Part shown: in pieces, positions 8,202 through 8,571 of the stretch
Numbering within the stretch: the first letter of the stretch is position 1
Layout: each line of letters opens with the position of its first letter
NCBI GenBank assembly: GCA_018238155.1
Contig: JABCTZ010000046.1
Location: 192,001 to 256,000 of the forward strand
DNA: 64,000 nucleotides
Direction of reading: 5' to 3'
DNA from: Candidatus Heimdallarchaeota archaeon
GTDB taxonomy: Archaea; Asgardarchaeota; Heimdallarchaeia; JABLTI01
Notes under the pieces: generated by a model
Databases searched by the model: none
What the model saw: the letters and a program-made list of their open reading frames with translations, nothing else
What the model was told of the DNA's origin: nothing
Program-made: the position numbers and the translations under genes

Positions 8202-8397
8202 ATGCAATTTAATCATATTTCCCTCAGCTTTAGAGAAAAGAGCATGTCTAAAAATAACTTCAAAAATGGCGATTTTGTTATTCATGCCTTTGATTTTACT
8301 ATTTTTGTCTAAATAAACATATAAAAAGAGTCAATTAGGCATTTTGAATTTTAGGTCATAAAGATACGTTTATATTAGATTATGTTGTAGTTAACAT

Positions 8398-8495
8398 AGC
8401 GTGCTTAATGCCATTTGCACGCCATTTTGAATATTGACTATCTCCTGTTTCGACGCGGGGTTTCTCTACTGAGGAATTCCCGCGTCTTCAATTTC
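8398..8495 (+). ncRNA. Candidate ~90-nt structured small RNA or 5' leader
   Basis: TTTATATT box at 8369-8376; hairpin GCGUGC/GCACGC (8399-8422); single-stranded linker; 15-bp GC-rich stem with G-U pairs (8452-8486); then a U-rich tail. Confidence 0.55.
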
Positions 8496-8571
8496 GAACG
8501 AATATTTTTTACAGATAAGGACTCAAAAAATTGATAACTCTATTTGTTTTAGCAGTACTAGGAAGATAACA

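Follow-up and report, generated by a model that had tools for sequence, protein, structure and literature searches.

Bacterial sibling sRNAs, among them Qrr1-5, PrrF1/2 and OmrA/B, carry identical seeds, act on metabolic regulons and often depend on Hfq. The Sm site is a single-stranded RAU4-6GR flanked by stem-loops, and archaeal SmAP proteins bind U-rich RNA. The closest archaeal systems described are sRNA41 and sRNA154 of Methanosarcina mazei, which are trans-encoded and carry anti-RBS sequences (PMC5867862; Buddeweg et al., 2017, doi 10.1111/mmi.13900, as presented in PMC5867862).

The locus considered here lies in a stretch of 64,000 nucleotides of a Heimdallarchaeial genome (the window) and recurs as a second copy on another contig of the same genome. 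The genome is referred to as G000, the window copy as paralogue A and the second copy as paralogue B (G000:C15:429623-429732, minus strand; 77% identical to A, with compensatory changes in both stems). Like sRNA41 and sRNA154, the locus appears to encode an intergenic archaeal sRNA that is conserved within one genus and whose unpaired pyrimidine-rich stretch is predicted to mask several RBSs of one metabolic module and thereby to repress translation. It differs from them in that there is no sequence or Rfam relationship, the phylum is Asgard/Heimdall, the seed is in the linker between hairpins rather than in a loop, and two paralogues share an identical seed, with a fatty-acid/phospholipid regulon that is predicted from sequence alone. 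As in the Qrr, PrrF and OmrA/B siblings, stems and tails diverge around an invariant seed that is predicted to pair with the initiation regions of a coherent gene set, whereas the promoter here is archaeal and the seed internal instead of 5'-terminal. The U-rich single-stranded tract between two stem-loops also recalls eukaryotic Sm-class snRNAs and archaeal SmAP-bound RNAs; however, the AU4-6G consensus is not kept in paralogue B, there is no Rfam snRNA similarity, and in paralogue A the Sm-like bases (GCCAUUUU) can be explained by start-codon complementarity instead.

It seems reasonably likely that the two paralogues are sibling trans-acting anti-RBS sRNAs that govern a fatty-acid/phospholipid regulon, and the sRNA probably controls the translation of lipid genes rather than of the neighbouring CYTH gene. 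The preliminary description of the locus had offered two readings, a trans-acting RNA with an anti-SD-type seed and a cis-regulatory leader of cyaB. The first has gained from the analysis, which revealed two syntenic paralogues and seed complements at conserved ribosome-binding regions elsewhere in the genome.

Promoter, fold and covariation

The element had been described as a TATA-driven RNA of two hairpins on the + strand, and that description holds: the promoter is conserved, the stems covary and the G-U pairs are possible on the + strand only. All of the coordinates first given for it were correct when re-read on the sequence, and the Sm-like AUUUUG is present between the stem-loops (Table 1).

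Table 1. Features of the paralogue A locus and its surroundings; positions are those of the window
Feature	Position	Strand	Remark
BRE-like purine-rich element AAAGATAC followed by TATA box TTTATATT	8360-8376	+	Shared promoter block
TATA box TTTATATT	8369-8376	+	22 nt separate the box from hairpin 1
Hairpin 1 (SL1), predicted 5' end of the RNA	8399-8422	+	GCGUGC 8399-8404 / GCACGC 8417-8422, 12-nt loop
SL1 loop UGCCAUU	8409-8415	+	Invariant in 36/36 copies
Unpaired linker	8423-8451	+	Between hairpins 1 and 2
Linker 1, U-rich CAUUUUGAAUAUU	8423-8435	+	Sm-like site of the preliminary description; UUU invariant, flanks differ between A and B
Sm-like AUUUUG	8424-8429	+	Within linker 1
Unpaired seed GACUAUCUCCUGUUU (candidate anti-RBS)	8436-8450	+	Identical in 35/36 copies
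UAUCUCCU, anti-SD-like	8439-8446	+	Inside the linker
Hairpin 2 (SL2), GC-rich, variable top	8452-8486	+	15 bp, bulged U8477
SL2 G-U pairs	U8463-G8474, G8460-U8478	+	Fold
3' tail, likely termination zone	8487-8510	+	UUUCGAA 8492-8498; T6 run 8505-8510
AGGAAGAUA, SD of CYTH	8560-8568	+	Precedes the CYTH ATG at 8572

The promoter block is shared by both paralogues in all genomes and reads (A)AGAAUAC/CAAGACA followed by TTTATAT/TTAATATA. It ends 22-23 nt before the G of GCGUG and occupies -30 to -23, and the remaining upstream DNA is unrelated between paralogues A and B. The usual archaeal spacing places the TATA centre ~26-27 nt upstream of the transcription start. Since the centre here is ~26.5 nt upstream of 8399, transcription would be expected to start at the foot of hairpin 1. 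At the other end, the preliminary description had noted a U-rich terminus; the tail is indeed U-rich, but the first run of at least five T's in the window's genome is a T6 that lies 19 nt past the stem, while most copies of paralogue A have a T5 immediately after SL2. The RNA would be about 90-112 nt long, with its 5' end at ~8397-8399 and its 3' end in the U-rich stretch. The conserved BRE/TATA, the T-runs in most copies and the varying flanking genes are what an independent intergenic transcription unit should display. The promoter and hairpin 1 are flanked by the two copies of a 13-nt direct repeat, CATTTTGAAT(T/A)TT (8340-8352 and 8423-8435), which only the window's genome and G009, its closest relative, carry and which may have arisen by a local duplication.

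A 121-nt stretch of the + strand folds at -37.2 kcal/mol, as against -21.5 +/- 2.9 for 200 dinucleotide shuffles (z = -5.3), none of which folds as well, and the fold of the - strand is weaker (z = -3.8). The seed is unpaired in both the MFE and the centroid folds. The GC content, which had been called anomalous for intergenic DNA, is 48.9% over the 88-nt RNA core, compared with 25-27% in the intergenic flanks and 32.8% in the genome. The mismatches of hairpin 2 are two G-U pairs, valid on the + strand only, as had been reported.

Covariation, named beforehand as a test of the structure, is present in a model-fitted alignment of 30 distinct sequences. Standard pairs fill 97.8% of the pair cells, and sliding the 3' partners lowers this to 26-61%. 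Changes on both sides occur in eight of the 15 stem pairs, and the observed covariation is reached by none of 500 shuffles. The five modelled pairs of SL1 are paired in 100% of the 30 sequences, with two compensatory changes (U-A to C-G and G-C to A-U), and 96.7% of the cells are paired in SL2, where six of ten modelled pairs are compensatory. The frequent G-U pairs fix the strand as +, and their restriction to that strand together with the compensatory stem changes points to selection at the RNA level.

Elements that are invariant or nearly so in both paralogues comprise the SL1 stem GCGUG/CACGC, its loop UGCCAUU, the UUU of linker 1, the seed and the base of SL2, and the top of SL2 and the 3' tail vary freely. 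The only variant of the seed is an A to G change in G007_A, which retains pairing with U. One B copy (L046, G003:C213) contains an extra 21-nt hairpin, GUACGAACUUCAGUUCGUAUU, directly before the invariant seed; thus, this position tolerates insertions. Every A paralogue has the same palindromic UUUCGAA in its tail, and no B paralogue has it. Pairing with the UUUGAA of linker 1 could close a helix, or the palindrome could be a dimerisation or protein site. The closing helix (UUUGAA/UUCGAA) was examined and is unsupported, because both strands are invariant, without covariation, and the helix is predicted for type A only.

In linker 1, paralogue A has an invariant Sm-like CCAUUUUGAA with the core AUUUUG, and paralogue B has CCUUUUAGA, CUAUUUGAA, CUAUUUAAU or CUAUUAGAA. 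At the position of AUUUUG itself, paralogue B reads CUUUUAG, UAUUUGA, UAUUUAA or UAUUAGA, and UUU alone is invariant across A and B. Two LSM-domain genes are present in G000, and SmAP may bind the sRNA.

Distribution, genomic neighbours and RNA class

BLAST and covariance-model searches found the RNA in 11/11 genomes of the window's Heimdallarchaeial genus, so the homologues in related MAGs that the preliminary description suggested looking for do exist. Ten of these genomes have two copies and one, which is 64% complete, has a single copy; a pattern scan added 15 copies on metagenome contigs. Searches of 72 further genomes of the class did not find the RNA; among them is the sole genome of the sister genus (G011, 75% complete), in which a relaxed pattern search also returned no sRNA. 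No copy turned up when synteny was used to search beside the ESCRT-II-like orthologues of another family (four genomes). The remaining covariance-model matches (E > 0.01), whether from the genus or from elsewhere, are at chance level and mostly resemble coding DNA, with no TATA box nearby. By these comparisons, the element is an RNA gene family with two paralogues kept across one Heimdallarchaeial genus.

The family does not fall into the RNA classes with which it was compared. The Infernal/Rfam scan proposed at the outset matched no family to either paralogue: Rfam 15 gave zero matches at gathering thresholds over the whole window, and in E-value mode both paralogues obtained chance-level scores only (11-18 bits, as against gathering scores of 37-136). 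ARAGORN identified neither a tRNA nor a tmRNA. Box C/D sRNAs combine a K-turn with a C box (RUGAUGA) close to the 5' end and a D box (CUGA) close to the 3' end; here RUGAUGA occurs in no copy and CUGA only in the variable SL2 top of some copies. Box H/ACA sRNAs enclose a pseudouridylation pocket in the hairpin, carry a K-turn or K-loop and have an ACA box downstream of the stem; here the stems are continuous except for a 1-nt bulge, and ACA follows neither hairpin in any copy. A riboswitch or 5' leader would hold a constant same-strand position before one gene family, and the RNA holds none.

The two paralogues occupy different neighbourhoods. Upstream of paralogue A there is always a conserved gene for a 77-aa membrane protein adjoining an ESCRT-II-like gene; in the window, the latter is EAP30/Vps22-36-like (6751-7791, - strand) and divergent to the former (7968-8201, + strand). 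Of ten genomes, six have CYTH after paralogue A and four have a convergent gene for an M14 carboxypeptidase. Paralogue B lies, in nearly every case, after an FKBP gene; the gene beyond it either belongs to the UDG family or encodes an unknown 246-aa protein.

These arrangements bear on the cis-acting alternative, in which the RNA would be a regulatory leader or riboswitch of the CYTH (cyaB-like) gene downstream, its anti-SD sequestering the SD of that gene. The CYTH gene does lie on the same strand in G000 and G009, 86 nt past SL2, and its SD AGGAAGAUA pairs imperfectly with UAUCUCCU. However, AGGAAGAUA occurs only in these two genomes, the other CYTH genes having GGUGA-type SDs or none, so that the SD complementarity is missing in four of the six CYTH-bearing genomes. 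T-runs follow SL2 in most copies. The cyaB-leader reading fails because the downstream gene varies (CYTH, convergent peptidase, UDG or unknown), and we regard it as highly improbable.

Readings without an RNA gene would make the locus a small ORF, a MITE or REP repeat, or the 3' UTR or terminator of the 77-aa gene upstream. The GC-rich hairpin with U's behind it is terminator-like, the 13-nt direct repeat begins at 8340 and again at 8423, and short ORFs can be read from the AUG of the loop. Nevertheless, a multi-copy MITE or REP element, which the preliminary description had named as an outcome that would overturn it, is not what was found, since each genome carries two copies at two fixed syntenic loci. 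Repeats of this kind exist in many dispersed copies and often show terminal inverted repeats and target-site duplications. The conserved promoter is placed ~170 nt after the upstream stop, the compensatory stem changes and + strand G-U pairs speak for selection on the RNA, and the reading frames differ between paralogues, the 9-codon ORF of paralogue A stopping at a UGA that overlaps the first two seed bases. We therefore give this group of explanations very little credence. Minus-strand and small-ORF readings were rejected on the strand of the G-U pairs, the side of the promoter and the frames that differ between paralogues.

Seed complementarity to lipid genes

Candidate targets were sought in G000 by scanning positions -30 to +9 around 11,720 candidate starts, which cover all ORFs of 80 aa or more. 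The longest contiguous complement to the seed among these start regions has 12 nt (AAACAGGAGAUA) and lies at the start of a 3,574-aa ORF. This ORF contains NMO/ER, KS, AT, ACP, KR, DH and PPTase domains, a set that identifies it as a fatty-acid/polyketide-type megasynthase (FAS). Only 12 genes have a complement that reaches 9 nt and takes in a GGAG at SD spacing, and five of them are lipid genes of unrelated families. Besides the megasynthase, these are the ACC carboxyltransferase (Carboxyl_trans; directly upstream of the megasynthase), fakA (Dak2 and FakA_M domains; the first gene of a fakA-fakB(DegV)-plsY operon whose gene order was verified), a second PlsY (G3P_acyltransf) and a second DegV. 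Two more lipid genes, one DegV and one PlsY, both on contig C1, match at 8 nt. The genome contains 11 DegV genes, 6 PlsY genes and a single carboxyltransferase gene; to our knowledge, 11 DegV (FakB-like) and 6 PlsY make an unusually large set for an archaeon.

With the lipid genes taken as about 25-40 in all, their enrichment has a hypergeometric P of ~1e-8 over the whole ORF set and of ~1e-4 to 1e-5 in the most conservative form (the 779 ORFs with GGAG at SD spacing, with all lipid genes assumed to be among them), values to be read in the knowledge that the lipid category was noticed after the first matches, although the carboxyltransferase, PlsY and DegV matches came later. Part of the seed match is generic, since AGGAGAUA is a common form of SD in G000 (about 20 genes). 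Paralogous DegV and PlsY genes may also share upstream DNA by descent. Genome-wide, sites with up to three mismatches to the 15-mer complement number 150, as against 189 for the reversed control, and so are not globally enriched. A scan for bipartite sites that match both seed and loop gave 4 non-self sites, as against 0-3 in shuffles, a result that is not significant alone.

When the full sRNA is cofolded with each of the five start regions, SL2 is preserved and the seed is paired to the SD, with a ddG of -10 to -17 kcal/mol. When RNAduplex was used with the single-stranded part, the FAS start ranked only 14th of 11,720 and a non-conserved SDR control scored similarly; with the whole 5' half, the ranking was dominated by spurious pairing of the GC-rich stem at sites inside ORFs. 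Because duplex energies fail to separate conserved from non-conserved candidates, contiguous complementarity and conservation were used instead. Other unpaired bases may assist the seed: GCCAUUUU (C8422 and linker 1) is predicted to pair with the AAAAUGGC start context of fakA and of some megasynthase start regions, and the complement of the loop, AAUGGCA, consists of a start codon and GCA, as in the fakA start region (8/8 genus genomes). Pairing with targets accounts only partly for GACUA, at the 5' end of the seed, and for the UUUCGAA that is specific to the tail of paralogue A.

In the mechanism that we propose, the BRE/TATA promoter of the gene itself would drive transcription from ~8397-8399 into the U-rich stretch past hairpin 2, and the two covarying hairpins would hold the C/U-rich 15-nt GACUAUCUCCUGUUU single-stranded. 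The seed would then pair in trans with the SD/start regions of the megasynthase, the ACC carboxyltransferase, fakA-fakB-plsY and the further PlsY and DegV genes, assisted by the loop UGCCAUU and, in paralogue A, by GCCAUUUU, both of which are complementary to start-codon contexts. Such pairing would mask ribosome binding and result in co-ordinated, probably repressed, translation of the lipid genes. Transcription, pairing in vivo, the direction of regulation and the involvement of any chaperone (SmAP) are matters that we infer from the DNA.

A different use of the same bases would be as a general anti-SD regulator, in which the seed pairs with many GGAG RBSs or competes with the 16S 3' end and there is no lipid regulon. 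CUCCU is common to the seed and the 16S 3' end (GAUCACCUCCU), and in 40 of the 779 ORFs with a GGAG SD the identity to the seed complement extends to 8 nt or more. Conversely, only 12 genes reach 9 nt, five of them lipid genes, the non-lipid matches tested lose their complement within the genus, and many genes of the genus use GGUGA-type SDs, which cannot pair with the seed. This general role is quite improbable in our judgement.

Comparative evidence at the predicted target sites

Orthologues of the targets were located by protein-anchored searches, DNA-level BLAST of start regions being too insensitive, and conservation across the genus was tested for four of the five lipid targets. The complement is kept at the megasynthase in 9/9 cases (9-13 nt), at the carboxyltransferase in 9/9 (with a ACAGGAGA core), at fakA in 8/8 (8-12 nt, together with an invariant AAAAAUGGCA start context) and at PlsY in 11 of 12 copies (9-12 nt). 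Two non-lipid matches of G000 served as negative controls. Both the SDR epimerase and a 151-aa gene lose the complement within the genus, the latter although the surrounding sequence is 82-83% identical.

Outside the genus, the megasynthase orthologues have complements of at most 6 nt (18/18) and GGUGA-type SDs instead. The spacer between the carboxyltransferase and the megasynthase also differs: within the genus it measures ~60 nt and contains a TATA-like run and the seed-complementary SD (G000:C15:409839-409895; L169-L178, L204-L223), whereas in 17 orthologues of other families it measures ~12-15 nt with a GGUGA/GAGG-type SD. These differences suggest that the megasynthase start site has been remodelled and is separately controlled in the genus, and they illustrate how a target start region can be remodelled by lengthening of the spacer and gain of a seed-complementary site. 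The genus is a single lineage; thus, the co-occurrence of the sRNA and the FAS motif counts as one evolutionary event. The fakA motif occurs outside the genus in the sister genus only, where G011 keeps it, though not the FAS motif, and the sRNA was not found. Paralogue B is located 9-12 kb past the 3' end of the megasynthase in all seven genomes that have both on one contig.

The same comparisons weigh on the idea of a protein-binding RNA (for instance, a SmAP/Lsm RNP or a protein sponge) that has no specific mRNA targets, so that the match to lipid RBSs would be a by-product of its anti-SD-like composition. The recognition sites would be the invariant linker, the loop and the stems GCGUG/CACGC. 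Such an RNA would account for stems that are conserved in sequence as well (three of five SL1 pairs and three of ten SL2 pairs never vary) and for the U-rich tract between the hairpins with its invariant AUUUUG in paralogue A; the presence of two LSM genes and the frequency of AGGAGAUA-type SDs also agree with it. Left unexplained are the concentration of (A)AACAGGAGAU(AG) in five unrelated lipid families and the restriction of the FAS start motif to the genus that bears the sRNA, and the Sm consensus is lost in paralogue B. We consider a purely protein-binding role unlikely.

Returning to the anti-RBS sRNAs, a broader proposal can be made more tentatively. The genus may have evolved the sibling sRNA pair along with matching RBS motifs on at least five unrelated genes, which would switch a whole bacterial-type pathway of fatty-acid synthesis and glycerol-phosphate acylation (megasynthase, malonyl-CoA supply, FakAB and PlsY), possibly with an Sm-like chaperone. 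If true, Asgard archaea would have their first described network of regulatory sRNAs, no report of a regulatory sRNA in these organisms having been found in the literature searched, and there would be a way to tell when these relatives of eukaryotes produce fatty-acyl lipids. An RNA switch on the megasynthase/ACC/FakAB-PlsY set would show that the pathway is actively regulated, and the abundance of the sRNA in cold-seep and sediment metatranscriptomes would offer a simple means of learning when, and under which conditions, the pathway is in use. The predicted regulon is concrete and falsifiable, and the family has a clear structure, promoter and phylogenetic distribution.

Stable RNAs were also considered as targets and rejected. 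In the 16S gene, in the partial 23S gene and in the DNA flanking them, complements do not exceed 8 nt, which is chance level; one of them is positioned 12 nt ahead of the 16S 5' end. A 13/15 match in the 23-nt intron of tRNA-Arg(CCU) arises because the intron pairs with its own CCU anticodon loop. That tRNA gene (G000:C41:221805-221905) has a canonical 23-nt intron in which AAACAGGAGA forms this pairing. The 16S and 23S genes are unlinked, ~62 kb apart on one contig (G000:C1:70404-71894 and C1:134052-136836), and the end of that contig cuts the 23S gene short.
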